64,000 nt of DNA from positions 1 through 64,000 of IMG/VR virus record IMGVR_UViG_3300037088_000882; one strand, given 5' to 3'. This DNA comes from a virus. A program made the translations under genes and the position numbers. Shown here one piece after another: positions 28,754-42,729 of the stretch. The notes below the pieces were generated by a model. That model saw only the letters and a program-made list of their open reading frames with translations, was not told where the DNA came from and searched no databases. The stretch's first letter is position 1. Each line of letters starts with the position of its first letter.

Positions 28754-30280
28754 TTATTTAATAAATATTTTTGATCTGTATGTGTTATTTATGTTTGATA
28801 TTTGAATTAGACATTCTCCCGAGCAAGGGATTTTAATATTAGAATTATTTAATAAGGTTTGATAAATAAGTCGCCCTTGCAAATTCAGAACTGTTAAATG
28901 GTAAACATCTTTGTCGAAAGATGTAAGATGAAAGATTGTTTGGCCATTTATTTTTATTGCTTTTTCAGCGTAAATTTTATTCCCCGTGTTTATGGCTACA
29001 GGAGGAGGACTAGTGAAATGAAAAGAAATTGTATCTGGTACTGAGCCTCCCAAGTATACACATATTAGACCTGATCCAGTATCTATAGGTGAGAAAGTCC
29101 ATACACTATCATTAGCTGGAATTTTACTTGTCCTAACACCATTGGTGATGGACCAATCGGCTTTTAAACAAACCCATTGATTATTATCTATACGTCTGCC
29201 TTGGACTTGTAGTGACGTACTTTGGCCGGTGAGTAAATTTAGATTTTTTATAACCTGGCTATTTCCAGTGGTAATTCTGAGTGAGTCATAAAAAGATAAT
29301 ACTATAAAAGCTTTTGCCGTTTTAGTCATTTTTCCTAATGAGTCAGTTACCGTTAGAGTGACTGAATCAATACCAAAAGCTGAAGGATTCCATGCATAAG
29401 ATAAGGCTGTTCGACTCAACTGTACAGAAGTAGAATTTCCGATTTTTATGTATTGATATTGAATCCCTGCTGGTACTGTAGAAGTCCATGTTATTTGTTG
29501 CGGTGTTCCGATATATGCGATTAATGATGTGTTCGTTATAGATACGGTAGGAAGAGGGGCAGATATATTAAAAGAATCAGATGCAACATTATTAAAAGTG
29601 TCGGCATTCCAAGCACATATTTTGAAATTAACCCGGCCTATGTCAGTAGAGGTTGGAGTCCAGGAATAAGTGGATGATGTAGGACTAAGAGTGTCGAGTC
29701 TTGTAAAAGGTCTACCACTATGGCTTATCCATATAGATTGGGCTGTCACGGCAACGGTATCTTTTGTGATCCACTGGAATATAATTGGAGTTTTAATATA
29801 AGAATTTGGAGGAGTGGTTATTGAGATTGATGGAGGTTTTTCTAGTGCTCCTGATCCCATCATTGATAATGGCCAATGTTTACATATGTAAACTAAACTA
29901 TCTACGAGGCTGTCCTTGAGATCTAGTAACCAATATGCTTTATTATGAATTGTAATTACACCTGTCCAATAATCTCCTGCAGTAATTGTATGAGTAAGAG
30001 TTTTAGCTGATGATACGCCATTAGCCACAAAAGTTTTTATAGTATCATAAAAAATACTATCTGGACCGTATGGGTTGAGAGGCTTGTCATTAACGTCACA
30101 TACTTTACCCCGAAATGATACATAAAAATTCGTTTTTGAGGAGGTCCCGTACTGGACTATTGAATTTGATGCGTTAAAGATGTTTCCTGAAATTTTAAAA
30201 GTGAAACCTAATGCAGCTGAAGTAGAAAAGGACAGAAGAAACGTTAAGGTGATGGTGAGAATTAATTTATTCACAGGCAT
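28754..30280 (-). CDS. Secreted Ig-like repeat protein with T9SS-type C-terminal sorting-like domain
   Basis: Signal peptide; two PxxSIT..ITW..W.P Ig-like modules; C-terminus LTVLNLQGRLIY..LIQI..KIFIK; true start may be GTG at 30274 given RBS spacing. Confidence 0.6.
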   Translation of the reverse strand: MPVNKLILTITLTFLLSFSTSAALGFTFKISGNIFNASNSIVQYGTSSKTNFYVSFRGKVCDVNDKPLNPYGPDSIFYDTIKTFVANGVSSAKTLTHTITAGDYWTGVITIHNKAYWLLDLKDSLVDSLVYICKHWPLSMMGSGALEKPPSISITTPPNSYIKTPIIFQWITKDTVAVTAQSIWISHSGRPFTRLDTLSPTSSTYSWTPTSTDIGRVNFKICAWNADTFNNVASDSFNISAPLPTVSITNTSLIAYIGTPQQITWTSTVPAGIQYQYIKIGNSTSVQLSRTALSYAWNPSAFGIDSVTLTVTDSLGKMTKTAKAFIVLSFYDSLRITTGNSQVIKNLNLLTGQSTSLQVQGRRIDNNQWVCLKADWSITNGVRTSKIPANDSVWTFSPIDTGSGLICVYLGGSVPDTISFHFTSPPPVAINTGNKIYAEKAIKINGQTIFHLTSFDKDVYHLTVLNLQGRLIYQTLLNNSNIKIPCSGECLIQISNINNTYRSKIFIK

Positions 30281-30326
30281 CTCCTTTCTTTTTGGGTTTG
30301 AGTGCCTATGACTATATTATACATGT
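30271..30326 (-). repeat. Promoter/RBS cassette copy 1 (paralog of 31881-31932)
   Basis: acatgTATAAT..TCATAGGCA..AAACC..AAAAAGAAAGGA..GCCTGTGAA is shared by both copies. Confidence 0.7.
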
Positions 30327-30365
30327 TTTTTTAAGAAAAGATTAGTATGTCGGAAAAATAGATTA

Positions 30366-30530
30366 TTATTTTTCTAAATCTAACTTGATTATTTTAACCG
30401 TATACCCTGTACGTTTGTAAGGTTCTGACATTTTCTCGGCATGCTTCAAGGTCGAGATCTCTCGAGTGATAAGTTTCCATCGATCTGCTACTTTATAACA
30501 GGCAATATAATTATCTGGCTCTTTACTCAT
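30366..30530 (-). CDS. Small hypothetical protein (54 aa; not in ORF track)
   Basis: MSKEPDNYIACYKVADRWKLITRE...; starts 4 nt after the upstream stop codon. Confidence 0.5.
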   Translation of the reverse strand: MSKEPDNYIACYKVADRWKLITREISTLKHAEKMSEPYKRTGYTVKIIKLDLEK

Positions 30531-30534
30531 ATAT

Positions 30535-31338
30535 TTAATATCCAAGTACAGGATGACTCTTAAGGTTCTTTATAAGTTCATGGCATACTTCAAAGGGCAT
30601 TTGCGGGGCCCCTTCCGTGATTATGTGGCCTGGACTGAGCTCGGGTGGCTCTTCTTCCCAGGCCTGGTCTCTTAGACCTGGACTTAGAATGACGGCTGGC
30701 ATATAAGTGAAAGCCCAACCTTCTCTAGGGTAGTCCATTTCTGGAGTCAGGTATGTTTTCGCTATAAACAGATTATTAGTTATTTTCTCTACTACCAGAA
30801 CCCCATAAATTAAATCCAAATATATGAATTTATCGGTTTCACAAAAATAAAAGGAATTCATGGTTAGTATTCTAAGGTAATCAGCAGGATTGGGGTTTGT
30901 AAATAAAGTTTTTTGAAAAGATATTCTAAGATATCGAAAATTCTCCTCGTTGTATCTTTCTTTGAATTGTTCGAAACAATGAGCTGTGTAGAAGAGATGG
31001 TCCAGGTAAGTCCCTGGCATACTGCCGTAAAGCCTTCCAAACTCAGTTTTATATGTAACTTCGAAATTAGTGTATGCACGTAATTTACGATCGAAATTAT
31101 AGAGGTTTACCCATTCTCCGTAATAAGTGTGGAGCTCAGTAAGGATGTATTCCATTAATCTTTTTCTTGCATTATCCGATATTTTGCTGACATCTTTATT
31201 TTTGAATTCTTTGAGGAAGGCTTTTTCTAAGCAAATATTAAGCATGGCTCTAGGGTATCGTTCCAAGGCCACGGTCTTGAAATGTTTGTTGAGATCAGCA
31301 ATGACCTCTTCGGGATTTCCATAAGGTTTGAAAGCCAT
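30535..31338 (-). CDS. Hypothetical protein
   Basis: 267-aa ORF in a tightly packed - strand run. Confidence 0.6.
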   Translation of the reverse strand: MAFKPYGNPEEVIADLNKHFKTVALERYPRAMLNICLEKAFLKEFKNKDVSKISDNARKRLMEYILTELHTYYGEWVNLYNFDRKLRAYTNFEVTYKTEFGRLYGSMPGTYLDHLFYTAHCFEQFKERYNEENFRYLRISFQKTLFTNPNPADYLRILTMNSFYFCETDKFIYLDLIYGVLVVEKITNNLFIAKTYLTPEMDYPREGWAFTYMPAVILSPGLRDQAWEEEPPELSPGHIITEGAPQMPFEVCHELIKNLKSHPVLGY

Positions 31339-31341
31339 TAA

Positions 31342-31884
31342 TTAAAACCCAAGGTTTGCTTTTGATTCTCTGCGTTTGTTAATTGAATCATATTTCATAG
31401 AATTTCTAAATACAAAAGTAATTGGAGTTTTTTCATTGTAATAACTTGTAAGTACAAAGGTTCTTGTTTTAAATTCCCAGGTTATTTCTTGTTTTATGCC
31501 ATTTTCTTTAGTTTCTTCTTTTTTGTTTTCGAAACTGGTTTCAGATCCTAATCTTTCAACAAGTCTGTTATATAAAGTTTGAAGGCCTCCAATTTCGTGG
31601 CATTCTTCTTCATTATAAAAAATACCGATTGAATATAAAGTATCATCAAGAAAAGAGCATGCGGCGGCTGCGGCAGTTTTCATTACAGCAAGATACTGAT
31701 AGACACCTATTTCATGCTCGATATCTTTGGCAGGGAATTCTTCAGCATCTGGGTGAGCTTTTTTGAAATGCCCTAGAGTCATTCCTATTTTTAAATCCTC
31801 AAATTTAAAATCTTCTGATTTTTGGGAATAGCTTAAGCTGAATAAGAAGAGAGACGTTAAGATTAGACGTGGGATTGTTTTCAC
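31342..31884 (-). CDS. Hypothetical secreted protein
   Basis: N-terminal signal peptide (MKTIPRLILTSLFLFSLSYSQ); GTG start with AAAGGA RBS. Confidence 0.6.
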   Translation of the reverse strand: MKTIPRLILTSLFLFSLSYSQKSEDFKFEDLKIGMTLGHFKKAHPDAEEFPAKDIEHEIGVYQYLAVMKTAAAAACSFLDDTLYSIGIFYNEEECHEIGGLQTLYNRLVERLGSETSFENKKEETKENGIKQEITWEFKTRTFVLTSYYNEKTPITFVFRNSMKYDSINKRRESKANLGF

Positions 31885-31932
31885 AGGCTTCCTTTCTTTT
31901 TGGTTTAGAATGCCTATGAATATTATACATGT
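31881..31932 (-). repeat. Promoter/RBS cassette copy 2
   Basis: Near-identical to 30271-30326, including TATAAT and AAAGGA..GCCTGTG. Confidence 0.7.
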
Positions 31933-31964
31933 ATTTTGAGAGAGGTATAGAGGATTTTTTTAGA

Positions 31965-32051
31965 TGGTACCGGAAGAGTGACTTGAACACTCACGGGATT
32001 GCTCCCAATAGATCTTGAATCTATCGCGTCTCCCAATTTCGCCATTCCGGC
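31965..32051 (-). tRNA. tRNA-Leu(CAA)
   Basis: GCCGGAA..ATAGA-TT CAA GA-TCTAT, long variable arm, TTCAAGT T-loop, encoded ACCA. Confidence 0.92.
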
Positions 32052-32056
32052 TTAAG

Positions 32057-32272
32057 TGGTCAGGACAGGTTTACGCCCTACGATTTATGCCACACGCTTT
32101 TTCATTTTACTGTACAGTGTGGATCTATTAATATGAAGCATTTCAGCGATTTTTAAAGTGGGATTGGAGGAATTCGAATCCTCATTGTGTTGATTTTAAG
32201 TCAACTGCCTCTACCAGTTGGGCTACAATCCCTCAATATAAATCACATGTCTACCAATTTCAACACCTGAAT
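32057..32272 (-). pseudogene. Split/degenerate tRNA-like shell enclosing tRNA-Leu(TAA)
   Basis: 5' half TCAGG-TGTTGAAATTGGTAGACA (D-arm) at 32272-32240; 3' half GTAGG-GCGTAAA-CCTGT-CCTGA-CCA at about 32088-32057; GATTTAT/ATAAATC closes the insert. Confidence 0.45.
32159..32232 (-). tRNA. tRNA-Leu(TAA), short variable loop
   Basis: GGGATTG..GTTGA-CT TAA AA-TCAAC..GAGGA-TTCGAAT-TCCTC-CAATCCC-A; no full CCA. Confidence 0.9.
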
Positions 32273-32280
32273 AGTAAAAA

Positions 32281-32363
32281 TGGAAGGGGCAAGATTTGAA
32301 CTTGCGAACTCCGAAGAGACGGGATTTACAGTCCCGGGCCTTTAACCACTCGACCACCCTTCC
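32281..32363 (-). tRNA. tRNA-Tyr(GTA)
   Basis: GGAAGGG..CGGGA-CT GTA AA-TCCCG, variable arm, GCAAG-TTCAAAT-CTTGC; CCA not encoded. Confidence 0.92.
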
Positions 32364-32370
32364 GTAAATT

Positions 32371-32456
32371 TGCGGATAAGAAGATTTGAACTTCTAAAAG
32401 GATTACTCCTCGCTGGTCTCTGAAACCAGTGTGTTTACCAATTCCACCATATCCGC
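32371..32456 (-). tRNA. tRNA-Leu(CAG)
   Basis: GCGGATA..CTGGT-TT CAG AG-ACCAG, long variable arm; CCA not encoded. Confidence 0.9.
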
Positions 32457-32464
32457 GTAATATA

Positions 32465-32621
32465 TAGATTGCGTTCAAGTTACTAAAGCATTTACCCCTT
32501 TCGGGATACTTGTCGATTCTCAAGATCGATGCCTTACCAATTTGGCTATATTTCCATTCGGAAACACTCGGAGTCGAACCGAGATTAGTAATGTAGGCTT
32601 TAATTGTAAAAACGCAATCTA
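32465..32621 (-). ncRNA. Circularly permuted tRNA-mimic RNA 1 (YrlA/Y RNA-like) with a TGA anticodon-like loop
   Basis: 11-bp terminal stem TAGATTGCGTT/AACGCAATCTA; order is T-arm, closed acceptor hairpin (TGTTTCC-GAAT-GGAAATA), D-arm, then TCGAT-CTTGAGA-ATCGA. Confidence 0.75.
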
Positions 32622-32624
32622 ATC

Positions 32625-32711
32625 TGGTGCGGTCGGTCTGATTTGAACAGGCATAGGATTGCTCCCACATGCACCTCAAGCATGCGTGGCTACCAATTAC
32701 ACCACGACCGC
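32625..32711 (-). tRNA. tRNA-Leu(GAG)
   Basis: GCGGTCG..CATGC-TT GAG GT-GCATG, long variable arm, encoded ACCA; one T-stem mismatch. Confidence 0.9.
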
Positions 32712-32719
32712 ATAATTTA

Positions 32720-32864
32720 TAAAGCCATATCCGAGTTATCAATGCTATCTTGATAGATTCTATTCTATTGCCTTTACCATTTGGCTATTCCCCCATAATT
32801 GGGGGAACGTGGAATCGAACCACGAATTTTTAATGTAAGCATCAACGGTAAAGATATGGCTTTA
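32720..32864 (-). ncRNA. Circularly permuted tRNA-mimic RNA 2 (YrlA/Y RNA-like)
   Basis: 12-bp terminal stem TAAAGCCATATC/GATATGGCTTTA; CGTGG-TTCGATT-CCACG, TTCCCCC-AATTAT-GGGGGAA, GCC-AAATGGTAAA-GGC, ATAGA/TCTAT. Confidence 0.75.
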
Positions 32865-32877
32865 ATTTCAAAGAACT

Positions 32878-32966
32878 TGGTGCGAATGTAGAGATTCGAA
32901 CTCTAAAGAGCTGTTAAGCTTCCAGATTCTAAGTCTGGCCCCTGCTACCAATTCGGGTACATTCGC
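32878..32966 (-). tRNA. tRNA-Leu(TAG)
   Basis: GCGAATG..CCAGA-CT TAG AA-TCTGG, long variable arm, TAGAG-TTCGAAT-CTCTA, ACCA. Confidence 0.92.
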
Positions 32967-32975
32967 ATATATTTA

Positions 32976-33046
32976 AGACGGTGCCCAGGATCGAACTGGG
33001 GCTGTCGGTTTTGCGGACCGATGCCTTACCTCTTGGCTACACCGTC
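32976..33046 (-). tRNA. tRNA-Cys(GCA)
   Basis: GACGGTG..TCGGT-CC GCA AA-ACCGA..CCCAG-TTCGATC-CTGGG-CACCGTC-T; U73 discriminator, atypical C33, no CCA. Confidence 0.85.
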
Positions 33047-33195
33047 GGATAAAAGAATTTATCTAATTCAAAGACCTCGTTTAAACATATTTCATTGATT
33101 TTCTCATTTGTGAAATCAGGTTCTTGGCCTTCTTCTATGCACGAGAATTTAAATGGTACATTATCTCGTAATTCATGCCCTATTTTAATTTTCAT
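33037..33195 (-). CDS. Small acidic hypothetical protein (52 aa) ending inside tRNA-Cys
   Basis: GAGGGG RBS; MKIKIGHELRDNVPFKFSCIEEGQ...; TAG stop is at tRNA-Cys positions 8-10. Confidence 0.35.
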   Translation of the reverse strand: MKIKIGHELRDNVPFKFSCIEEGQEPDFTNEKINEICLNEVFELDKFFYPTV

Positions 33196-33211
33196 TTAAT
33201 CCCCTCAGTAT

Positions 33212-33259
33212 AAAACAAAAAACCCTGCTTGATCTTTAGAACCAAGCAGGGTTTTGTTT
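33212..33259 (-). terminator. Attenuator terminator A
   Basis: AAAACCCTGCTTG / CAAGCAGGGTTTT stem followed by a T-tract (TTTTTTGTTTT). Confidence 0.85.
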
Positions 33260-33279
33260 ATTTCTTTTTTAACTTTAGA

Positions 33280-33366
33280 TCAAGACAAAATCCTACCCGG
33301 TCCCTTTAGATAGCTAAGGTAATATGATAGACACAAAGGTAAGGATTGAATAGTCTTATTGCTCAT
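33280..33366 (-). CDS. Leader peptide A (28 aa, Leu/Tyr/Cys/Ser-rich) of a putative tRNA-operon attenuator
   Basis: MSNKTIQSLPLCLSYYLSYLKGPGRILS*; ATG is 8 nt after the -10 box; the 3' end can pair with the terminator 5' arm. Confidence 0.75.
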   Translation of the reverse strand: MSNKTIQSLPLCLSYYLSYLKGPGRILS

Positions 33367-33374
33367 GATAACTA

Positions 33375-33403
33375 AATATAACACAGAAAAAATAAAAAGT
33401 CAA
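33375..33403 (-). promoter_or_regulatory. sigma70-type promoter of tRNA operon A
   Basis: TTGACT-17 nt-TATATT with extended -10 TGn. Confidence 0.75.
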
Positions 33404-33411
33404 TTACTTTT

Positions 33412-35484
33412 TTAAGGTTCTACTGCTGTAAAGTCATTTTCAGGAACAGTGCTTTTATTTTTAGATCCGTATTTCCCAAGACGTGGCGAAATAAGAGAGT
33501 CTTCGGAAATAAACCCCATAAGAGCTGAAGTTAAAGCTTGCTCACTAAGATATTCTTTTATTACCTGATCTTTATTCAAAACTTTAAAAAGTTTCATAAC
33601 ATGAGATACTTTGCATAATGCCACTTGTCGATAGGCACTAAGAACATCTTTTTTGATAGCATTAGAGTACATAACATTATGTTGTTTTTGATGAAATTCT
33701 GCAGTTTCTTGTATGATTGGGGATTCTTCATTAAAAAATACTGCGGATCCCATATGTCCGTCTTCAAAACGGTGTTCATCTTTATAGAAGCATATATTTA
33801 CTTCATGTTGCATATCATTTTTTCCTACAGGGACAATTATTGGCATATCTTTTTTAATTTTTATTTCTATACTAGGAGTAGAATCTCCTGTGCTTTTTGC
33901 CTTTTTAACTCGAATACGTCGCCAAATTTGTTGAGAACCATCTATTGCTACGCCAGTTTTTTTCTCACCTGTATCGCTACCTTTACCCTCACTACTCCCT
34001 TTACTTACGCCATTTAAAAAGCTCTCCCCCTCTTGGCTAGAGTCGATGAGACCGGTACTTTTTTGGTTTACAGGAACTTCTTCGTCAGTAGGGTCTTTTT
34101 TTATTTTTGATTTATTGGAATAATCTATGACATGGATACTATCGGCAAACCTATTACCGTATTTATCTAAAATTCTTTTTAGAAGAGCTTCATTGCCAGC
34201 AATTAGATCATCGCTGTCTCTGTCTTTATGTAATTCTTTGATTGTGTTAACTATTTCTTCTGGCATGTTTTTTATAAACAGGAGTCCCCAATATTCCATA
34301 GGAAGTTCAATACTTTTTTTCCCGTTTCCAGTAAAGAATAAATTTGATCGGCTTTGATCAGGGAAGACGCCCCAATCTGTCTCTTGTGTGTGAATCTGGG
34401 GTTCTATAATAATAGTTAATCGATTTTGAATTTCTTTGTCAATTATTCCGAAATTTCTAAAATTTGATATATGAGAATTAAAATTATATAGCTCTCCTTT
34501 ATACATAACAGCAATGAAACCACTTTCTAGAGCATAGCCGTGACATACAGGACGGGCACCTTCCCAAAGGTACCAGCTAATTTTAAGTTTGCCATCTTCG
34601 AGATAGAAGGTATCTGCTGTTTTAAGTTTACCTATTTTTGGGGCAATAACTTTAGCTTCTGTTATGTAATACTTAGCTCCATGGCATATCCTGGTATTTC
34701 CCCTGGTAGTATTATATTTTTGTAATTTTTCATTGAATTCTTTTTCGCATCGCGGCCATTCATCTCGATTAGCTTTTCCATAATTAAATTCTTTAACACT
34801 AACTTGAATATTGTCCAGATTAAAAAAACGTGTATTAATATAACGTGTCAAATTTGAGGTATACCCTTTTTCCGATTGCATGTATGTGTCAGTTTTTGAG
34901 TCGTTCCCCATAAGAATGATGCAGGTTCCATGATCTCTAACCCATTTTGGAGCAACTAAAGACCAATCAATTTCATCCTCTTCCCATTCTACTGACATAG
35001 GGTCGATAACGGTTGCTATCTCATCGTTAAATTCCCAACTGGAAATGCTATAGGCTTTTTCCTCTATGTCATAATACATTCGTATCATTGATCCAATACC
35101 GTTTTGGTAAGATATGTATACAACACCAGCCCCATTCCATGGCAGAAGAGATATTCTACATCCAATACCAAAATTTGTGTGAATGACTCTATCATTTTCA
35201 TTCATTTCCTGCATGACTGCTTTACCGCTGGATTGTATGTTTGTAAAATATTTTTTAAGTTGTTCTGCGGACATGCCATCCCCATCGTCGCAAATCATAT
35301 GACGGTAAACACCCTCTTTAGTAACCGATTGCCATTCAACTCCAAACTCTACTTTTTTAGCATGGGCTTCAATGGCATTCATTAAGACTTCACGGGCCCA
35401 TTGATAAGGTTGGCAAAAACGGTATGTTCTGAGAATAAAATCTGTGGCATTTTCCATGCCAATGGGGAAGCTTTTGGAAGACAT
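33412..35484 (-). CDS. GHKL-family (HATPase_c / Hsp90/MORC-like) ATPase
   Basis: Bergerat motifs REVLMNAIEA, DDGDGMS and NFGIGCRIS; AAAGGA RBS. Confidence 0.75.
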   Translation of the reverse strand: MSSKSFPIGMENATDFILRTYRFCQPYQWAREVLMNAIEAHAKKVEFGVEWQSVTKEGVYRHMICDDGDGMSAEQLKKYFTNIQSSGKAVMQEMNENDRVIHTNFGIGCRISLLPWNGAGVVYISYQNGIGSMIRMYYDIEEKAYSISSWEFNDEIATVIDPMSVEWEEDEIDWSLVAPKWVRDHGTCIILMGNDSKTDTYMQSEKGYTSNLTRYINTRFFNLDNIQVSVKEFNYGKANRDEWPRCEKEFNEKLQKYNTTRGNTRICHGAKYYITEAKVIAPKIGKLKTADTFYLEDGKLKISWYLWEGARPVCHGYALESGFIAVMYKGELYNFNSHISNFRNFGIIDKEIQNRLTIIIEPQIHTQETDWGVFPDQSRSNLFFTGNGKKSIELPMEYWGLLFIKNMPEEIVNTIKELHKDRDSDDLIAGNEALLKRILDKYGNRFADSIHVIDYSNKSKIKKDPTDEEVPVNQKSTGLIDSSQEGESFLNGVSKGSSEGKGSDTGEKKTGVAIDGSQQIWRRIRVKKAKSTGDSTPSIEIKIKKDMPIIVPVGKNDMQHEVNICFYKDEHRFEDGHMGSAVFFNEESPIIQETAEFHQKQHNVMYSNAIKKDVLSAYRQVALCKVSHVMKLFKVLNKDQVIKEYLSEQALTSALMGFISEDSLISPRLGKYGSKNKSTVPENDFTAVEP

Positions 35485-35588
35485 AAAAATTATCCTTTCA
35501 CTAGTAGTACTAGGGATTGGTTAAAGTAAAAAATAAACTAAGATAAAACTTGAGTTTAAAACACAAGGTTTATCCATAACATTAAAAT

Positions 35589-36416
35589 TTATGGGAATAT
35601 GACCATTTCGTTTGAAACAGGTATAGATCGATCCTCTTTTTTACTTTTATTACTACTTTTCGCTGAATATATAATGTCAATTCCTTGTAAATTATTTCCG
35701 TTGAATAGCGATTCAGTCGCAGATAGTCTATCTATGGACAAGCACCAAGCTTTTTTAGTATTTAAAAAGTCTCTTAAACGTTCAAGATCTTTTAGGCCAA
35801 AGTCACAATTATACCATTTTTTTCCGTATTTAATATAAGGAGGGTCTGCGTAGATGAAATCGAATGGCACATTGTTTAGGAAAGTTTCGAAATCCTCACA
35901 AGAAACGGAAAGGATTTTATCTTTTAACAACATTCTTGTCCGTTCGATTTTTCTTATGATATTTGGAGGATTCCAGTATACGTCAACATTCCAGGCACTT
36001 TTTTGATCCCACCCTCCGATTGGCAAAGACTCTGTAATAAAGCCGTTGTATGAGGTTTTATTAAGGAAGATTACTTTAAATGTTTTTTCTAAGTTTGTTG
36101 TTGGTTCACTGTGAAAAATATTTTTGTAGGTTTCTAAATTAACAACTTGAGTTGTAATTGCTTTATAAAGGGCTTCAAATTCAGAGTTTTTTGAGGCTTT
36201 AAAAAATTTCCAAAATGACCCTACATCTTTATTAGCGTCATTAAGATGGAATTTCCATAAAGGAAAATCCTTTGCCATGTTAATTAATGACCCGCCTCCT
36301 CCGACAAAAGGTTCAGCTACTGTCCATTCTGATGTGCGGGCTTCAGGATATGTGTTTTTTATCATTAAGTCTATTTTTTTCATTAGCCTTAATTTACCGC
36401 CGGGGTATCTTAGCAT
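35589..36416 (-). CDS. dam: DNA adenine methyltransferase (Dam/D12 class)
   Basis: LRYPGGK, EPFVGGGG, FLNKTSYNG and YADPPY motifs. Confidence 0.88.
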   Translation of the reverse strand: MLRYPGGKLRLMKKIDLMIKNTYPEARTSEWTVAEPFVGGGGSLINMAKDFPLWKFHLNDANKDVGSFWKFFKASKNSEFEALYKAITTQVVNLETYKNIFHSEPTTNLEKTFKVIFLNKTSYNGFITESLPIGGWDQKSAWNVDVYWNPPNIIRKIERTRMLLKDKILSVSCEDFETFLNNVPFDFIYADPPYIKYGKKWYNCDFGLKDLERLRDFLNTKKAWCLSIDRLSATESLFNGNNLQGIDIIYSAKSSNKSKKEDRSIPVSNEMVIFP

Positions 36417-36541
36417 TTATTATCCAATTCGGGTTGTGGAGTGAAAATAACGCTTTATATATAATACTCGAATTATATATAAATATAAAAATAAATCGTT
36501 TAGAATCTACGAAAGGTAGGTAATATCAGGATGGGGAGTTT

Positions 36542-36859
36542 TCAGATTTTTATTTCTATAGGTTTTAAGATCATTGATTCGTCTTCTCCTGCATATACTA
36601 CAGGGATTTCTGGGTACAGCTTTTTTAATTTATTTGCAAGTTCTATTCCCCAGGTATTAAGTTTTTTTGCTTTGCCTTTTTTGAATGTTGAATAATCTGA
36701 TTCGAAGCAAGTATCGTAATATCTTATCCAAGATTCAAATTCGTTGATTAATTCTTGAGGCAGTTTTAACTCTTCGTAATCAATCATGCCACCAAGATTC
36801 TCCCATATACCAGAACTTGAGAAGTCTGGCATTACTTTTAGCTTTGTTATCTCATTCAT
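36542..36859 (-). CDS. Hypothetical protein
   Basis: 105 aa, AAAGGA RBS, follows tRNA-Ala. Confidence 0.6.
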   Translation of the reverse strand: MNEITKLKVMPDFSSSGIWENLGGMIDYEELKLPQELINEFESWIRYYDTCFESDYSTFKKGKAKKLNTWGIELANKLKKLYPEIPVVYAGEDESMILKPIEIKI

Positions 36860-37241
36860 GATTTTCCTTTAAATAAGTGGAGCTACGGGGATTTGAACCC
36901 CGAACTTTCAGCTTGCAAAGCTGACACTCTTCCAATTGAGTTATAGCCCCATTATTTTCTATCTGAATTTCAGATTTCCAGTCTTTTTGTTTCTTTTCCT
37001 GCATTGTTAAACTTCCACCACTTTCCCAGGCAGTACGCCTTGGGTTTCCACACATATCACAGCTACATAGTTTTGTAGTATTTCTAAGTATGTAAGAGAA
37101 ATACCTCAATGTTTTTTCTGTAGGCTTTGAAGAACATAACAATCCTTGAGCACGTTTCTTCCCCTTATTGGCCCCAATAAGGAAACGTTCTCTACGATCT
37201 TTTGGATGAGACATAATGTACCCTTTTCTAGCGTCACTCAC
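36852..37241 (-). CDS. Small basic Cys-motif protein (CSCxxCGNPR) whose reading frame runs through tRNA-Ala
   Basis: Start is GTG 37241 or ATG 37214; Lys/Arg-rich; no stop codon before the tRNA. Confidence 0.6.
   Translation of the reverse strand: MSDARKGYIMSHPKDRRERFLIGANKGKKRAQGLLCSSKPTEKTLRYFSYILRNTTKLCSCDMCGNPRRTAWESGGSLTMQEKKQKDWKSEIQIENNGAITQLEECQLCKLKVRGSNPRSSTYLKENHE
36878..36950 (-). tRNA. tRNA-Ala(TGC)
   Basis: GGGGCTA/TAGCTCC with G3:U70; TCAGC-TT TGC AA-GCTGA; no full CCA. Confidence 0.93.
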
Positions 37242-37276
37242 TGACGCATGATAGTGGATATCATTATGTGCTCCTT
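37212..37276 (-). promoter_or_regulatory. uORF (MISTIMRQ*, 37264-37238) within a hairpin that sequesters the downstream start
   Basis: AAAGGAG RBS; CATAATGATATCC pairs with GGGTACATTATG; inner GCGTCA-GTGAG-TGACGC has the TGA stop in its loop. Confidence 0.5.
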
Positions 37277-37287
37277 TCTTTAAAATA

Positions 37288-37360
37288 AGCCGATGAGAGG
37301 GCTCAAACCTCCAACTTGCTGATTACAAATCAGCTACTCTATCAATTGAGTTACACCGGC
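37288..37360 (-). tRNA. tRNA-Thr(TGT)
   Basis: GCCGGTG/CATCGGC; GCTGA-TT TGT AA-TCAGC; A19/U56 replaces G19/C56; no CCA. Confidence 0.88.
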
Positions 37361-38661
37361 GTATGAACATATACGTTTTTAATATACTCCAAAGCATCTT
37401 CTTGATTCAAGATCGTCCCCTCGAGTTGTTGGTCCTCGATATCGGTTAAGATAATACCGAACTCTGGGCCTTGTTTAAAGCCCATATTAAGCAAATCCTT
37501 ACCAGTCACGATTCTTGGAGGACGAATTTCTTCTGGCTCATAAGTCTTGAGCTTTTCGATAACGAAATCATAGTTCTCAAGATTCCTATGCGATGATAAA
37601 CAATCTACCCGATGAAGAGCTAAATGATCTTCAATATTAGGTAGAGCCAGAAATCTTTTCAGTCGAGAAACTCTCATTTTCTTCACATGCATAAATTTCA
37701 TGTGGTTTTCGACTAAGTCTGAAATTCGAGTTACGAAATCATTTGAAAATTTCAACCTTTTCAAAATTCCCCAAGCAATATACTTACCCTTGATATCGTG
37801 GCCACTAAACCTTATACGGTCCTCGAAGGTTTGAGTAGGTGGCTTACCCACATCATGCAATAAGGTTGCCATTCTCACCTCAATAGAAGCCTCAGTAGGA
37901 AGATTTTCAAGAGCTTTTATCGTATGCTCGAGAACATCTCCTTCGGGGTGGTATTGAGGTGGTTGCTCACAACCCTTCATGGCCCGGACCTCGGGCAGGA
38001 TATGATCGATTAATCCAGTATCAAAAAGAAGGTTTACTGCCTTCCTGTAATTACCTGCCATAAGAATCTTAGTAAGTTCATCTGCAACTCTCTCGGCCGA
38101 GACCTGGGTTATTTCAAAGGCATGCCTTTGAACTGCCTCTATGGTGCCTGGATCGATTTTGAAATCAAACCTGGCAGAAAAACGTACAACTCTCATCATA
38201 CGTAATTTATCCTCAGCAATACGGTCATCAGGATTACCTATAAGCTTTATGATACCCTTATGAAGATCTTCAATACCTCCAACAGAATCGTAAATCTTAT
38301 CTTCAATTGGGTCATAGAACATCCCATTGATGGTAAGGTCCCTACGTTGAGCATCCTCTTCCATGGTGCAAAAAGAAACGCTATCGGGCCGTCGACCATC
38401 CGAGTACACTCCATCAGTCCTATAAGTAGCTACTTCGACTTCCTGGCCTTCATGGACGACTACAATGACTCCGAAAGCTTTGCCAACTGCAAGAGTCTTA
38501 TCGAATAATTGCTCGACCATTTCGGGACGTGCGTTAGTGGCTATGTCGATATCAGTTGAAGTCCTTTGTAAGAGCATGTCTCGGACATAGCCTCCAGCAA
38601 AGAGAGCTTCATAGCCATGGTCTCGTAATTTTTTAACTACATATAATGCTTGTTGTAACAT
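37351..38661 (-). CDS. cca: CCA-adding tRNA nucleotidyltransferase with HD domain
   Basis: AGGYVRD, DIDIAT, EDAQRRDLTINGM, EDKLRMMRVVRF, YHPEGDVLEHT and LLHDVGK motifs. Confidence 0.95.
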   Translation of the reverse strand: MLQQALYVVKKLRDHGYEALFAGGYVRDMLLQRTSTDIDIATNARPEMVEQLFDKTLAVGKAFGVIVVVHEGQEVEVATYRTDGVYSDGRRPDSVSFCTMEEDAQRRDLTINGMFYDPIEDKIYDSVGGIEDLHKGIIKLIGNPDDRIAEDKLRMMRVVRFSARFDFKIDPGTIEAVQRHAFEITQVSAERVADELTKILMAGNYRKAVNLLFDTGLIDHILPEVRAMKGCEQPPQYHPEGDVLEHTIKALENLPTEASIEVRMATLLHDVGKPPTQTFEDRIRFSGHDIKGKYIAWGILKRLKFSNDFVTRISDLVENHMKFMHVKKMRVSRLKRFLALPNIEDHLALHRVDCLSSHRNLENYDFVIEKLKTYEPEEIRPPRIVTGKDLLNMGFKQGPEFGIILTDIEDQQLEGTILNQEDALEYIKNVYVHTPV

Positions 38662-38662
38662 A

Positions 38663-38974
38663 TTATCCTATTTTGATATTTTCTTCTTCAATTTTAACCC
38701 CTTGTTTTTCAAGGGATTTGAGATCTCTTTCCAGTTCCTTTATATCTTGTTTTTTATGCTCCAAAACATATATGATAAATCTTTTTATAGCTATGGCATC
38801 TTCATCTGAAACTTGAACAGTTGAATAGCTTGAAAATTGTATCTCTGATTTTGTTGGATCATCTTTTTTATAGCACAGTATTCGTGTGTTTGCACTACCG
38901 CCTGTGAAAGAATATTCAATGCCTTCTGAAAAAAAAGATCCAGTACAGACATGCATAATATTAACATTTTTCAT
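38663..38974 (-). CDS. Hypothetical protein
   Basis: 103-aa ORF between tRNA-His and cca. Confidence 0.55.
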   Translation of the reverse strand: MKNVNIMHVCTGSFFSEGIEYSFTGGSANTRILCYKKDDPTKSEIQFSSYSTVQVSDEDAIAIKRFIIYVLEHKKQDIKELERDLKSLEKQGVKIEEENIKIG

Positions 38975-38993
38975 ATTTTATCCTATTTAAATT

Positions 38994-39071
38994 TGGGGTG
39001 GAAGACGGGGCTTGAACCCGCAACCACTGGCTTCACAGGCCAGGGCTCTAGCCAATTGAGCTACCTCCACC
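38994..39071 (-). tRNA. tRNA-His(GTG) with encoded G-1
   Basis: G-GTGGAGG..CTGGC-CT GTG AA-GCCAG..CTTCCAC-C-CCA. Confidence 0.93.
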
Positions 39072-39077
39072 ATAAAA

Positions 39078-39767
39078 TCAGTCTTCTCTTACTTGAACAA
39101 ATTTTTCGATGTATTCTCGATCTTTAGTGAAAATCGGAATGTTTAAATCTACATCCCCATTAACAACACAAAAACCACGTTTCCGCACAACTGGATATTT
39201 ATCGAAATTTATTCCTTTTTTCTGGAATAGTAACTCTTGTATTTCCTTACAAGAGACTTTATTTAATTCCTTGTGTGAAAAGTTTTCTCGCCCTGCCATC
39301 TGGATTGAGTTCCTGGTGGCATCCACTTGTCTCCATATGAAATAGTTTACTACCTCATCCTGAGGAATTGAAAAAACTCTACTATCAAAACAGACGTTGC
39401 TTCCATAGAGTCGAGAAAAGACTGCACTGGCCAAGGAAGCTGATATTGAAATCATTTTTCGTGCATCGTATCCGAACCAGGCATCTGTCGAGATCTTTTT
39501 ATAATCTGTTAAAAGAAAGCTTATTTCGTCGGATTGGCAGTAACAAAAACCGCACCCTTGAATGTCAGCTAATACCGTATTAGCAGTTGCGATCATTTGC
39601 TCGGTAAACTCCATGGACCATCCTTTTCCGAATCTTTTTCTGGTGATGGTGTGGAAGGCCCGGCCATCGATCCTGAGTATTACCGGAATCCGTCTTGGTA
39701 AAGTCCAAGCTGAGACTGATTCATAACGCTTCATGCGATCGCCTAGGTCTAACCTATCACTACTCAT
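39078..39767 (-). CDS. tRNA(His) guanylyltransferase / Thg1-like 3'-5' polymerase
   Basis: RMKRYE, RIDGRAFH, QSDEISFL, FDSRVF and YFIWRQVDATRNSI motifs; adjacent to tRNA-His. Confidence 0.93.
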   Translation of the reverse strand: MSSDRLDLGDRMKRYESVSAWTLPRRIPVILRIDGRAFHTITRKRFGKGWSMEFTEQMIATANTVLADIQGCGFCYCQSDEISFLLTDYKKISTDAWFGYDARKMISISASLASAVFSRLYGSNVCFDSRVFSIPQDEVVNYFIWRQVDATRNSIQMAGRENFSHKELNKVSCKEIQELLFQKKGINFDKYPVVRKRGFCVVNGDVDLNIPIFTKDREYIEKFVQVRED

Positions 39768-40014
39768 TTTTATTCCGATCTGTTATATAAGATTTAAGTC
39801 TTTTAATTATCCCATTTCCTGTTTCTATACCGTAGAAATCATTCACACAGTTATGGATTCTTTCTACGATTCGATCTGATTTTGATCCTTGTTTTACTGC
39901 GTTTTCGTAATAATCAATCCAGTCTACAAGCATGTTGTTTTTTTGCAGTACTTCTAACACAAATTCAAGAGGTAGCCCTATAGATGATACTACAAAATGG
40001 ATTCCTCTAACCAC
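39760..40014 (-). CDS. Small protein resembling the AlaRS helical 'YDTYGFPLDLT..VD' segment
   Basis: FVVSSIGLPLEFVLEVLQKNNMLVDWIDY; start uncertain; similarity judged by eye. Confidence 0.4.
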   Translation of the reverse strand: MVRGIHFVVSSIGLPLEFVLEVLQKNNMLVDWIDYYENAVKQGSKSDRIVERIHNCVNDFYGIETGNGIIKRLKSYITDRNKNE

Positions 40015-40096
40015 TATTTTTTTATCGGTCGAGTATCCTGAGAACTGTGATACGTTGCGTTTAGCATGAAGCTATTACCCTTCTATTATACATAAA

Positions 40097-40182
40097 TGGC
40101 GGAGGCGAGACGAGTCGAACGTCCAAGGCCTTTCGGCCGGCGGTTTTCAAGACCGCTGAATTACCAGTTATCCTACGCCTCC
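40097..40182 (-). tRNA. tRNA-Ser(TGA)
   Basis: GGAGGCG..GCGGT-CT TGA AA-ACCGC, variable arm GGCC-GAAA-GGCC, G73-CCA. Confidence 0.92.
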
Positions 40183-40192
40183 ATATATCTCA

Positions 40193-40265
40193 AGCCCACA
40201 TCCTGGATCGAACAGGAGACCTCATCCTTACCAAGGATGTGCTCTACCAACTGAGCTATGTGGGC
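40193..40265 (-). tRNA. tRNA-Thr(GGT)
   Basis: GCCCACA/TGTGGGC; CATCC-TT GGT AA-GGATG; no CCA. Confidence 0.93.
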
Positions 40266-40268
40266 ATA

Positions 40269-40709
40269 TTACCTTAACCCGTAAAGGTACAGCAATCCTG
40301 CCCATCCACTTGGAAGGCATTCTGGTGCTGTTTCTAATTTCTTTCCGTATTTCACAGCCATTTCTAAAAAATACTTAGCATGAAAGAATGCCTCTAACAT
40401 TGGCCGAGTGTGTTTGAGCCATTCCTTATTATGTTTTGAATCAAATACTTTACCAGTTCCTTCCTGGTATATTTGATCGAAGTCATCATTAAACATAACT
40501 CCTACAGGAGCTAAACTTTTTAAAGTTTCTATTATCTTTTGAGTGCTTCCCTGTATGCCGTATACTTTAAAAGAGGAATGGTAGAAACGGTAAACGTAAT
40601 CCTCATAACACCAATGGTCATTAATATCTTCCAGGAGCTTTTCAAGCTCGGGGAGTCTTGCCTTGATATTTACCAAGAGGTCTTTACTAAGATCTTGTCT
40701 CTCACTCAT
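40269..40709 (-). CDS. Hypothetical protein (146 aa; start corrected to ATG 40709)
   Basis: AAGGGAG RBS before MSERQDLSK; the track's longer N-terminus crosses the terminator and tRNA-Trp. Confidence 0.7.
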   Translation of the reverse strand: MSERQDLSKDLLVNIKARLPELEKLLEDINDHWCYEDYVYRFYHSSFKVYGIQGSTQKIIETLKSLAPVGVMFNDDFDQIYQEGTGKVFDSKHNKEWLKHTRPMLEAFFHAKYFLEMAVKYGKKLETAPECLPSGWAGLLYLYGLR

Positions 40710-40729
40710 AAGAACTCCCTTTTTAAAGA

Positions 40730-40791
40730 TGGCAGGAGTGGATCGAACCCCCATCGTCGGTTTTGGAGACCGGGTGCTTAGCGACACTCCT
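40730..40791 (-). pseudogene. Truncated tRNA-Trp(CCA), 62 nt
   Basis: Intact acceptor AGGAGTG/CACTCCT-G-CCA and CGGT-CT CCA AA-ACCG; D-loop and the 3' strand of the T-stem are deleted. Confidence 0.75.
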
Positions 40792-40793
40792 AT

Positions 40794-40835
40794 AAAACAA
40801 AAAACCCCGCCGAATCTTTCGATCGAGCAGGGTTT
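40794..40835 (-). terminator. Attenuator terminator B
   Basis: AAACCCTGCTCGATC-GAAA-GATTCGGCGGGGTTT followed by a T-tract; homologous to terminator A. Confidence 0.85.
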
Positions 40836-40864
40836 GATTTGAAACACTTTATTTTTACTTAACC

Positions 40865-40963
40865 TTACTCGATCTCCAATATAGTATGCCAATGTGCCCA
40901 TGATGTCGATGTGGTGGCCATTGCATTATTAGAGGATGATGTAGTAAGATTAATTGTTTTCAT
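40865..40963 (-). CDS. Leader peptide B (32 aa, Thr/Ser/Ala/Trp/His-rich) of a putative tRNA-operon attenuator
   Basis: MKTINLTTSSSNNAMATTSTSWAHWHTILEIE*; ATG is 7 nt after TATAAT; the stop region pairs with the terminator 5' arm. Confidence 0.8.
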   Translation of the reverse strand: MKTINLTTSSSNNAMATTSTSWAHWHTILEIE

Positions 40964-40970
40964 GGTTATA

Positions 40971-40999
40971 ATTATACTATATATTTCGGTTCGTGTCAA
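40971..40999 (-). promoter_or_regulatory. Consensus sigma70 promoter of tRNA operon B
   Basis: TTGACA-17 nt-TATAAT. Confidence 0.88.
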
Positions 41000-41009
41000 T
41001 ATTTTTAAT

Positions 41010-41468
41010 TTATTTCATATTTCTGCTTTTGAACTCTTCTATTATTTGTAAATGATCAAAAGCCATTTTTTCAGGTAATTCTGATATACGGAACCATTTA
41101 GCCTCTTTAGCGTCATCTCTAGCCTCTACTGCATCAATAAGTTTCTTGCTGTATGGGATGAGGGCATAATAGACAACAGACACTACTCGGCCTCTCGGGT
41201 CTCGGCCTGGGTCTCCAAAAGTTTTAAATTGTTTTAGAGGGATATTTTTTAAATCCTTGGTAGACAGAGATGTTTCTTCTTTTAATTCTCTGTAGGCGGC
41301 TTCTTCAAGGGTTTCTCCTGAGTCCAAATAGCCTCCAGGTATTGCCCACATATCTTTAAATGGGTTATTCACACGTTTTATGAGTAATATGTTTACCCAT
41401 TTTCTTATTGGGGTCATGATCACAATATCAACTGTTACGTTTTGTTTTTCGTATTTTCTTTTATTCAT
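41010..41468 (-). CDS. NUDIX hydrolase (ADP-ribose pyrophosphatase/NrtR-like Nudix domain)
   Basis: Nudix box GGYLDSGETLEEAAYRELKEETSL; FGDPGRDPRGRVVSVVY and AFDH motifs. Confidence 0.9.
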   Translation of the reverse strand: MNKRKYEKQNVTVDIVIMTPIRKWVNILLIKRVNNPFKDMWAIPGGYLDSGETLEEAAYRELKEETSLSTKDLKNIPLKQFKTFGDPGRDPRGRVVSVVYYALIPYSKKLIDAVEARDDAKEAKWFRISELPEKMAFDHLQIIEEFKSRNMK

Positions 41469-41488
41469 ATATTACCTTTGTTAAGAGA

Positions 41489-41558
41489 GGAAGTCCGAGA
41501 GACTGGAGGAAAAACTCGGACTTCCAAGAGCACCAGCATTTGACGCTGCTGTAGCTCC
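41489..41558 (-). other. Intergenic double hairpin (possible small RNA or regulatory element)
   Basis: Perfect 11-bp stem GGAAGTCCGAG/CTCGGACTTCC with loop TTTTTCCTCCAGTCT, preceded by a GAGC..CAGCA/TGCTG..GCTC hairpin. Confidence 0.45.
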
Positions 41559-41582
41559 ATAATTTATTATACTGTATTGCTA

Positions 41583-41741
41583 CTATCGATCTGAAATACG
41601 CTCTCTGGTTGAAAATCTATATTCACATTCAACACATTTTCTACGCCTTCGGATATATGTGGCATAATCACGGGAATCTATTACTATGGTTTTGCCTTTA
41701 CATTTTGGGCAAACAAGGTTTTTACGGTTGAGGTTTAACAT
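41583..41741 (-). CDS. Stand-alone NrdR-type zinc-ribbon protein (52 aa; not in ORF track)
   Basis: CPKCKGKTIVIDSRDYATYIRRRRKCVECEYRFSTRE matches the NrdR N-terminal CP.C..DSR..IRRRR.C..C..RF.T.E pattern; no ATP-cone. Confidence 0.75.
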   Translation of the reverse strand: MLNLNRKNLVCPKCKGKTIVIDSRDYATYIRRRRKCVECEYRFSTRERISDR

Positions 41742-41871
41742 CTGGTATCCTATCTTCGATCGTTACTATTGCGTGACATTGAGGACACGTAAGTTTTTTA
41801 GGGTTAAAAAGAATAGGTTCTAATTTTTCTTCTTCTGAAAGGGCTCCACAAAAACCGCATTTGTATTTCAT
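41722..41871 (-). CDS. Small zinc-ribbon protein (49 aa; not in ORF track)
   Basis: MKYKCGFCG...LTCPQCHA; abuts the upstream ORF. Confidence 0.55.
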   Translation of the reverse strand: MKYKCGFCGALSEEEKLEPILFNPKKLTCPQCHAIVTIEDRIPDVKPQP

Positions 41872-41872
41872 G

Positions 41873-42148
41873 TCACTTATTCCCTATCTCATTATTGGCG
41901 TCTAAAGACATAAGTGTGTTAGATGAAGCATCCTGTGACGTTCTTATTTCTTCACAATATCCTGAGCATTCCGTTACTACCCAATAAAGGCCGTCTTGCT
42001 TTTTTTCCTTAGTGAATTTATTACATACAGAGAAAGGGTCCCCAGCAATGAGAACACATGAAGCACACCTAGTTTCTCTACGTACTTCTCCTACGTGTCG
42101 AGCTGCGAGGCGAAAAGATGAATCGACTGGAATAAAGATGTAGTTCAC
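41873..42148 (-). CDS. Hypothetical protein
   Basis: 91-aa ORF in operon. Confidence 0.5.
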   Translation of the reverse strand: MNYIFIPVDSSFRLAARHVGEVRRETRCASCVLIAGDPFSVCNKFTKEKKQDGLYWVVTECSGYCEEIRTSQDASSNTLMSLDANNEIGNK

Positions 42149-42153
42149 GGTTT

Positions 42154-42729
42154 TTATTCATATTGCTGGACGGTTTGATCTAAATGCTCGATCGGTATAT
42201 TTGCTTTCTTTAACATATCAATTGATTCTTGTGCTTTTTGGTAAAGTTTTTTTGCAATGATTTTAGAAACTCCTATGCTTATAAGCATCATGGTGCAGGT
42301 TCTGCATGGGGTCATTGATACGTATACCATGGAACCATCTAAAGAGATTCCTCGACGAGCTGCTTGTAATATAGCATTTTGCTCTGCATGAATAGTTCGA
42401 ATACAGTGTTGTGATGGTGGCATCTCATATCGACTTTTAGCTGAGTTGTATGTGTGTGTATCTTTTCTTACTTGCATAATTATTTCTGCATCGTTGAATG
42501 CAGGCCACCCATTAACTCCAATCGTTTCATCTACAAATCTAATATGTTCTTCCATTTCATGCCCATATTTATCACAATGATCAAATCCTGGTGGGCTTCC
42601 AGCATATCCTGTGGTAAGTATTTGGTTATTCTTTACAAAGACGCATCCAGGTTTACCTCGATCGCAGGTAGACCTTTGAGATATTGAATCGACGACACTC
42701 ATGAAATATTCAGTCCAAGTAGGTCTCAT
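42154..42729 (-). CDS. dCMP deaminase (ComEB-like)
   Basis: RPTWTEYFM, RSTC, HAEQNA and PCRTC zinc-deaminase motifs; insertion between the HC motifs. Confidence 0.9.
   Translation of the reverse strand: MRPTWTEYFMSVVDSISQRSTCDRGKPGCVFVKNNQILTTGYAGSPPGFDHCDKYGHEMEEHIRFVDETIGVNGWPAFNDAEIIMQVRKDTHTYNSAKSRYEMPPSQHCIRTIHAEQNAILQAARRGISLDGSMVYVSMTPCRTCTMMLISIGVSKIIAKKLYQKAQESIDMLKKANIPIEHLDQTVQQYE

Follow-up and report, generated by a model that had tools for sequence, protein, structure and literature searches.

Candidate ribosome-mediated attenuators upstream of codon-matched tRNA gene blocks in a virus contig

Introduction

Why phages carry tRNA genes and how these genes are controlled is a long-standing question, and the current answers are compensation for codon usage and escape from host defences that target tRNAs. 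The locus described here raises this question in a particular form, namely whether a phage could switch on its tRNA genes according to how well the corresponding codons are being read. It lies in the first 64 kb (positions 1 to 64,000, hereafter the window) of a 92,412-bp virus contig from IMG/VR, IMGVR_UViG_3300037088_000882, which is approximately 20% complete according to CheckV. On the - strand of the window, two units (A and B) each place a sigma-70-type promoter, a short open reading frame (ORF) and an intrinsic terminator upstream of a block of tRNA genes. A preliminary description of this DNA had proposed that they are leader-peptide attenuators sensing the codons read by their own tRNAs, and both units are present where it had placed them. 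Furthermore, the same attenuator-like design is found four times in the 92-kb contig, with A and B inside the window and units C and D outside it. From the sequence we consider it likely that the units act by ribosome-mediated attenuation with codon-specific feedback on tRNA supply. If this is true, the phage senses how fast each codon is decoded and produces just those tRNAs that are in short supply.

Leader composition and downstream tRNA genes

A leader codon was counted as cognate when it could be read by the downstream tRNAs under standard wobble rules. Leader A consists mainly of Leu (four different codons), Tyr and Cys at codons 9-20, and 10 of its 27 codons are cognate to its own block (background frequency 0.137; binomial P 2e-3). 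Leader B, mainly Thr, Ser (TCN only), Ala, Trp and His at codons 7-27, has 16 cognate codons among 31 (background 0.135; P 5e-7). These counts bear out the earlier proposal that the composition of each leader follows its own cluster. In leader C, 16 consecutive codons are made up of Ser (AGY only), Ile (ATY only), Phe, Met and Asp plus one Thr, and the tRNAs downstream of it are Asp, two of Met type, Ile(GAU), Phe and Ser(GCU); 15 of its 28 codons are cognate (background 0.203; P 1e-4). Among windows of 31 or 28 codons taken from the long ORFs of the contig, none attains the cognate value of B or C.

Relatives were gathered by a search with the Thg1-like protein encoded in block B, which yielded two related virus contigs, G001 (79% identity) and G002 (74% identity), and several metagenome contigs. 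Seven further leader families were found in addition to A-D: E, F and G in G001 and G002, H and I at locus L089, J at L093, and K at L050 on an unrelated contig. Leader E is rich in Asn, Thr, Phe, Ser(AGY) and Cys, and its block contains Phe, Asn (G002 only), Ser(GCU), Cys and Thr(CGU) tRNAs and a tRNA with a CUA anticodon. Leader F has a Gly-Tyr-Glu-Gly-Tyr-Asp-Lys run upstream of Lys, His, Leu, Asp, Gly, Glu, Tyr and Ser tRNAs. Five consecutive codons of leader G specify Ala, Thr, Ile, Arg and Met, and the block is exactly Met, Thr(UGU), Ile(GAU), Ala(UGC) and Arg(UCU). Families G and B occupy equal positions upstream of the Thg1-like gene; their tRNA sets differ, and their leaders differ correspondingly. 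Similarly, leader I has a Pro/Gln core followed by Pro and Gln tRNAs, and leader J, whose block holds Pro, Gln, Arg(CCU) and Arg(GCG), adds five Arg codons that are all AGG or CGY, exactly as those tRNAs read. I and J are compared here by the content of their tRNA blocks alone (both Pro and Gln), not as demonstrated homologues. Across all families, leaders A, B, C, E, H, I, J and K are enriched in cognate codons (P 2e-3 to 4e-10), and D is not.

Covariation of leader composition with tRNA content, measured against shuffled leader-block pairs, had been set beforehand as a test of the proposal, and the true pairing came out ahead. When cluster labels were permuted among seven independent units, the true pairing was the best of 5040, and this result did not depend on which of two rules set the cluster extent or on which set of orthologues was used. 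With 11 independent units, its score was reached by none of 200,000 random permutations, and the leader's own cluster ranked top for 8 of the 11. Family K was drawn from a small candidate list that included the non-matching loci L057 and L067, and the seven-unit tests are independent of it. The match also extends to synonymous choice: for amino acids that a block serves at only some of their codons, 85 of 117 leader codons are cognate compared to 49.3 expected. Moreover, cognate codons make up 49% of codons in the ORF frame, compared to 22% and 17% in the other two frames. The L057 candidate, which came from a looser scan, was set aside for its weak codon match (P 0.16).

Antiterminator and terminator pairing

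Between leader and tRNAs lie terminators with stems of -14 to -23 kcal/mol and T tracts, 7-165 nt before the first tRNA. The terminators of A and B had been described as homologous, and the motif common to them indeed occurs exactly twice, both in the window and in the whole contig, with 0 copies expected by chance. Complementarity between the stop-codon region (segment 2, the 5' strand of the antiterminator) and the 5' arm of the terminator (segment 3) was measured in ten leader copies (A-D, E1/E2, F1/F2 and G1/G2). All ten form a duplex of -18 to -24 kcal/mol, compared to averages of -7 to -11 kcal/mol in shuffles, and these values are matched by at most 3 of 1000 shuffles and at most 5 of 1000 random genome windows. 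In A (-21.5 kcal/mol) and B (-18.1 kcal/mol) the duplex was equalled by 0/1000 shuffles, which together with the codon counts excludes chance as the source of either unit. Segment 2 lies within -21 to +17 nt of the stop codon in all ten copies. The inner stem is not the same in terminators A and B, and segment 2 is changed to match in each.

In folds of nascent RNA lacking segment 4, segments 2 and 3 pair over 19 bp in A, 13 bp in B and 12 bp in D, and a ribosome footprint placed on the stop codon abolishes this pairing. Full-length folds of A and B contain a 1:2 hairpin, in which the early ORF is paired with segment 2, together with the terminator (z-scores -3.3 and -4.7); the 1:2 pairings come from the minimum-energy folds alone, and C shows an internal hairpin in folds. 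In these folds, all three pairings of the classical attenuation model (2:3, 1:2 and terminator) thus appear to be available to the RNAs of A and B. The contig as a whole has only approximately ten terminator-like hairpins, and units A-D hold four of the five best antiterminator partners among them; the fifth hairpin, at 4623-4587, is weaker and also has a partner score of -17.8. No match to the Rfam leader families (Trp, His, Thr, Leu, Phe), T-box or riboswitch models was found at E values up to 1 in window positions 30000-43000 and contig positions 86500-92412. A PyrR match over unit A was discarded as being at chance level (29.6 bits against a cut-off of 54).

It is barely credible that short ORFs and hairpins in AT-rich intergenic DNA simply mimic attenuators through chance or composition. 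Promoter-like sites in the region are no commoner than in shuffles (37 found, 40.7 expected), as such an artefact would have it, and both unit D and the L067 candidate have hairpins without a codon match; however, the permutation, frame and shuffle controls reject this explanation, the terminator motif has an expectation of 0, and orthologous leaders keep their frame.

Conservation in relatives and start signals

G001 and G002 show hardly any differences from each other in the promoter, the initial codons, segment 2, the spacer or the outer stem of the terminator. The stretch of control codons has strongly diverged, with its frame (indels of 3 and 9 nt) and composition kept, and single-nucleotide indels occur only outside the ORFs. 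The leader orthologues thus appear to behave as translated leaders. In addition, the preliminary description had noted near-leaderless ORFs of 28-32 amino acids, and these were found again, with 28 codons in A, 32 in B and the ATG 7-8 nt past the -10 box. The distance from -10 box to ATG is 8 nt in A, 7 nt in B and 6 nt in D, which is the spacing expected of leaderless mRNAs, and leaders A, B and D (three of the four in the genome) appear to be leaderless. Unit C and units E-J have an AAGGA-like site, resembling a Shine-Dalgarno sequence, 6-11 nt before the ATG.

These observations also bear on the possibility that promoter, ORF and terminator form an independent small gene, an always-terminating peptide or small-RNA unit, with the tRNAs transcribed from other promoters. 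Strong terminators (-14 to -23 kcal/mol) that form at equilibrium for most simulated ribosome positions would suit such a gene, as would a promoter-like site inside cluster A (32263-32235). We nevertheless regard it as very unlikely: it leaves unexplained both the in-frame use of the adjacent tRNAs' codons and the complementarity of the stop region to the terminator 5' arm in all ten copies, and the peptide drifts in sequence while keeping its composition. Moreover, in units B and C the first tRNA begins no more than about 10 nt after the T tract, with no promoter between the two.

Two further features of the relatives concern their tRNAs. The E block (L084/L085, in G001 and G002) closes with the CUA-anticodon, amber-reading tRNA, and leaders E and G both stop at TAG; if this tRNA reads through the leader's TAG stop, the ribosome would enter the terminator region. 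In G001, approximately 200 nt upstream of a tRNA-Ile(UAU) gene (L083:12250-12500, - strand, approximate coordinates), a start resembling the 5' half of a tRNA and an end consisting of a T arm and acceptor 3' strand are separated by approximately 200 nt, which points to a tRNA gene interrupted by a large insert or an intron.

Proposed mechanism and alternative readings

The leader-peptide attenuator mechanism put forward in the preliminary description is supported by the covariation, the frame test, the antiterminator complementarity and the frame-preserving indels; transcription start sites, translation of the leader, conditional termination and the direction of the response are predicted. Host RNA polymerase would start at the strong sigma-70-type promoter, and the first ribosome would translate the 25-32-codon leader, without an untranslated leader in A, B and D and from the Shine-Dalgarno site in C. 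With fast decoding, the ribosome would arrive at the stop codon and cover segment 2, allowing the terminator hairpin (3:4) to form and ending transcription before the tRNAs. A ribosome stalled on the control codons would leave segment 2 free to pair with segment 3; no terminator would then form, and the polymerase would enter the tRNA genes and, in unit B, would also reach the genes for the Thg1-like and CCA-adding enzymes. The newly made tRNAs would relieve the stall. Because these products are the tRNAs that read the leader's codons, each unit would be a negative-feedback loop, with each block acting separately on its own codon set. Where a leader is written in the codons of its own block, the block would probably be made only when those codons are read slowly.

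A wider role can be suggested tentatively. The units could form a codon-resolved network for surveillance and rescue, in which each block is induced on loss of the host tRNAs for its codons, for instance through anticodon nucleases or tRNA degradation triggered by infection, and unit B adds enzymes for end repair. Such a sensor-coupled counter-defence, the purpose put forward in the preliminary description, is possible, though doubtful; the same circuit would also serve plain supply-and-demand control of decoding capacity.

The same attenuators could instead sense amino-acid supply or the overall status of translation, with charged-tRNA levels set by starvation or host shut-off and the tRNA blocks forming part of a stress or late programme. 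Classical attenuators such as trpL and hisL are established to sense charging rather than the amount of tRNA, and leader D, with its mixed composition and no cluster match, is what would be expected of a general sensor. In addition, the nascent folds of A, B and D without a ribosome put segment 2 in the antiterminator, and therefore loss of translation could also open these three units. However, a sensor of this kind would not require the match at synonymous codons (85/117 against 49.3), which favours tRNA abundance as the signal, and leaders match their own block rather than others. Extra tRNA would also be of no help in amino-acid starvation, and we consider this alternative unlikely.

Several observations weigh against codon-specific attenuation as set out above. 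Equilibrium folding with a moving ribosome footprint gave no clear switch: in units A, B and D the terminator remained approximately 90% formed, with lower values of 63-68% when the footprint was on a few early codons in A, and in C it was 33-79% formed at early codons. Since the terminator stays mostly formed at equilibrium, any switch must be kinetic, as in classical attenuators, and a switch of this type is beyond what equilibrium folding can reveal. Promoters were scored against the sigma-70 consensus, which may not be that of the host. Leader D has the complete architecture, yet only 1 of its 24 codons is cognate to the visible Glu tRNAs (background frequency 0.052; binomial P 0.7), and the count rises to 3/24 when a tRNA(UAU)-like gene farther downstream is included; tRNAs encoded past the end of the contig might read its Gly, Val, Asn, Lys, Arg and Thr(ACG) codons. 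Leaders F and G are weak across the whole ORF (P about 0.02-0.1), their signal being the short run that precedes segment 2. Four Ser codons in leader A have no matching tRNA in block A, and leader E1 is Asn-rich although the E block of G001 lacks an Asn tRNA.

The Trp tRNA that had been listed in block B is likewise atypical. In the element after terminator B, the 7-bp acceptor helix is perfect, a CCA end is encoded and the CCA anticodon loop is normal, but the element is non-canonical in that its D region is very short and a regular T stem is missing; no Rfam match was found to it (40728-40795), and it was missed by ARAGORN at the standard threshold. Nor is the design general. No unit with both pairing and codon match was found in the next-closest relatives, G003 and G005, or in 19 of 21 other tRNA-bearing loci, and none was found on the forward strand of the 40-kb tRNA region of the cultured Xanthomonas phage XacN1. 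Among those 21 loci, a matched unit occurs only at L050, and L067 has hairpins without a codon match. The neighbourhood of the Thg1 gene in Bacillus phage G contains no annotated tRNAs.

Organisation of the units and their surroundings

Coordinates of the features are given in Table 1. Cluster A comprises the Cys, five Leu and one Tyr tRNAs that had been reported for it. For cluster B, the two Thr, the Ser, the His and the Ala tRNAs and the genes for the Thg1-like and CCA-adding enzymes were all recovered, the Trp tRNA alone failing to appear in canonical form. As the features are located where they had been placed, the preliminary description was correct apart from this Trp gene. The Thg1-like and CCA-adding enzymes and the small ORFs of operon B are interspersed among its tRNAs, and unit B is the only one of the four units of the genome to carry enzymes for tRNA maturation or repair.

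Table 1. Coordinates of the features of units A and B (window) and of units C and D (contig outside the window).
Feature	Coordinates	Strand	Remarks
Unit A promoter	33375..33403	-	sigma-70 type; 10/12 consensus positions; 17-nt spacer; TG extension
Leader ORF A	33280..33366	-	ATG at 33366; 28 codons + stop
Segment 2 of A, antiterminator 5' strand	33284..33303	-	made of the leader's last 7 codons
Segment 3 of A, terminator 5' arm	33240..33258	-	common to antiterminator and terminator
Intrinsic terminator A	33213..33253	-	stem 33253-33221, 14-16 bp, -20.6 kcal/mol; T tract to 33213
52-codon ORF, terminator A to tRNA-Cys	33037..33195	-	Shine-Dalgarno-like site; no Pfam family
tRNA cluster A	31965..33046	-	Cys, Leu(UAG), Leu(GAG), Leu(CAG), Tyr, Leu(UAA), Leu(CAA); two tRNA-like inserts in ~167-nt gaps
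Unit B promoter	40971..40999	-	12/12 consensus positions; 17-nt spacer; sole 12/12 match in the 92-kb contig
Leader ORF B	40865..40963	-	ATG at 40963; 32 codons + stop
Segment 2 of B, antiterminator 5' strand	40860..40875	-	last codons, stop codon and 5 nt beyond
Segment 3 of B, terminator 5' arm	40821..40835	-	
Intrinsic terminator B	40795..40834	-	stem 40834-40803, -17.8 kcal/mol; homologous to terminator A
Atypical tRNA-Trp(CCA)-like element	40728..40795	-	adjoins terminator B; found by ARAGORN only at relaxed threshold
146-aa ORF within operon B	40269..40709	-	unknown family
tRNA-Thr(GGU) and tRNA-Ser(UGA)	40097..40265	-	
Thg1-like tRNA-His guanylyltransferase	39078..39767	-	PF04446, E 2e-22
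tRNA-His(GUG)	38994..39070	-	
CCA-adding enzyme	37351..38661	-	PF01743, E 2e-37; nucleotidyltransferase head, RNA-binding domain, HD domain
tRNA-Thr(UGU)	37288..37360	-	
tRNA-Ala(UGC)	36877..36950	-	last tRNA in block B
Unit C	88487-88262	-	promoter 88487-88459; ORF 88415-88326; terminator stem 88295-88270
Unit D	89404-89584	+	promoter 89404-89432; ORF 89439-89516; terminator stem 89547-89576

Two gaps of approximately 167 nt in cluster A (32712-32877 and 32457-32624, - strand) are homologous to one another and resemble circularly permuted tRNAs, with T arm, acceptor 3' strand, short loop, acceptor 5' strand and D arm in that order; the Rfam tRNA model gives a weak match in one of them (32503-32555, 24.8 bits). 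Directly before tRNA-Leu(UAA), the promoter-like site at 32235-32263 (- strand) has 10/12 consensus positions and a 17-nt spacer, and it may be an internal promoter of the cluster. Between tRNA blocks B and A (33412-36416, - strand) lies a gene for a 690-aa protein carrying a GHKL-type ATPase domain, as well as one for an adenine DNA methyltransferase of the D12 class.

Downstream of unit D are two Glu tRNAs followed by the tRNA(UAU)-like gene (contig 89870-89950, + strand; L168:3371-3451), which scores 37 bits with Rfam and was missed by ARAGORN. Its anticodon loop carries UAU, its D arm is nearly absent and its variable region is long, and the approximately 90 nt that precede the gene contain a conserved motif also found upstream of tRNA-Ile(UAU) in G001. 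No second copy of the unit D terminator was found in IMG/VR, and the ORF downstream of unit D has no homologue in the relatives fetched. Megablast found no nucleotide match to the region among cultured phages, PHROG scans of ten large neighbouring proteins gave almost no matches, and the large proteins of the contig mostly lack a match to a phage protein family.

Comparison with known systems

The closest parallels are the multivalent attenuators of enterobacteria (thr, for Thr and Ile; ilvGMEDA and ilvBN, for Ile, Val and Leu) and the related trpL, hisL, leuL and pheL. As in the phage units, a promoter-proximal ORF with control codons is followed by an intrinsic terminator, one leader can read several amino acids, and the 5' strand of the antiterminator is covered by a ribosome at the stop codon; a 1:2 hairpin may also be available, to judge from the full-length folds of A and B. 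Unlike these attenuators, which control biosynthetic enzymes, the phage units control tRNA genes and, in B, maturation enzymes. Their match distinguishes particular codons among synonyms, together with the anticodons, and leaderless starts are likely for three of the four leaders. The element as a whole belongs to a phage and is a set of units that divide the codon table among themselves and match no Rfam leader family.

The pheST attenuator of E. coli, with its pheM leader, is alike in using a leader peptide to control a component of translation and in feeding back on the decoding of one amino acid. Its target is an aminoacyl-tRNA synthetase and its input a single amino acid, whereas the phage units make the tRNA itself, with up to 5-14 tRNAs per unit. 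T-box riboswitches similarly precede genes connected with translation, and the state of a specific tRNA decides between their antiterminator and terminator. However, a T-box binds uncharged tRNA through a specifier codon and the T-box loop without translation, whereas in the phage units an in-frame ORF is provided with start signals and Rfam gives no T-box match (E up to 1).

Clustered tRNA genes accompanied by small ORFs and processing enzymes such as Thg1 are also present in cultured phages, including T4, T5 and XacN1. To our knowledge, accounts of those clusters treat their expression as belonging to the temporal programme and report no control by leader peptides. The preliminary description knew of no account of attenuator-controlled phage tRNA arrays, and our search of the full-text literature likewise turned up no report, from phages or bacteria, of tRNA genes under attenuator control. 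The phage units are approximately 200 nt long, self-contained and equipped with ordinary sigma-70 signals, and as such could serve as compact, programmable sensors of tRNA availability. If the mechanism proposed here is true, they would be, as far as we know, the first known case of classical attenuation feeding back on tRNA genes themselves.

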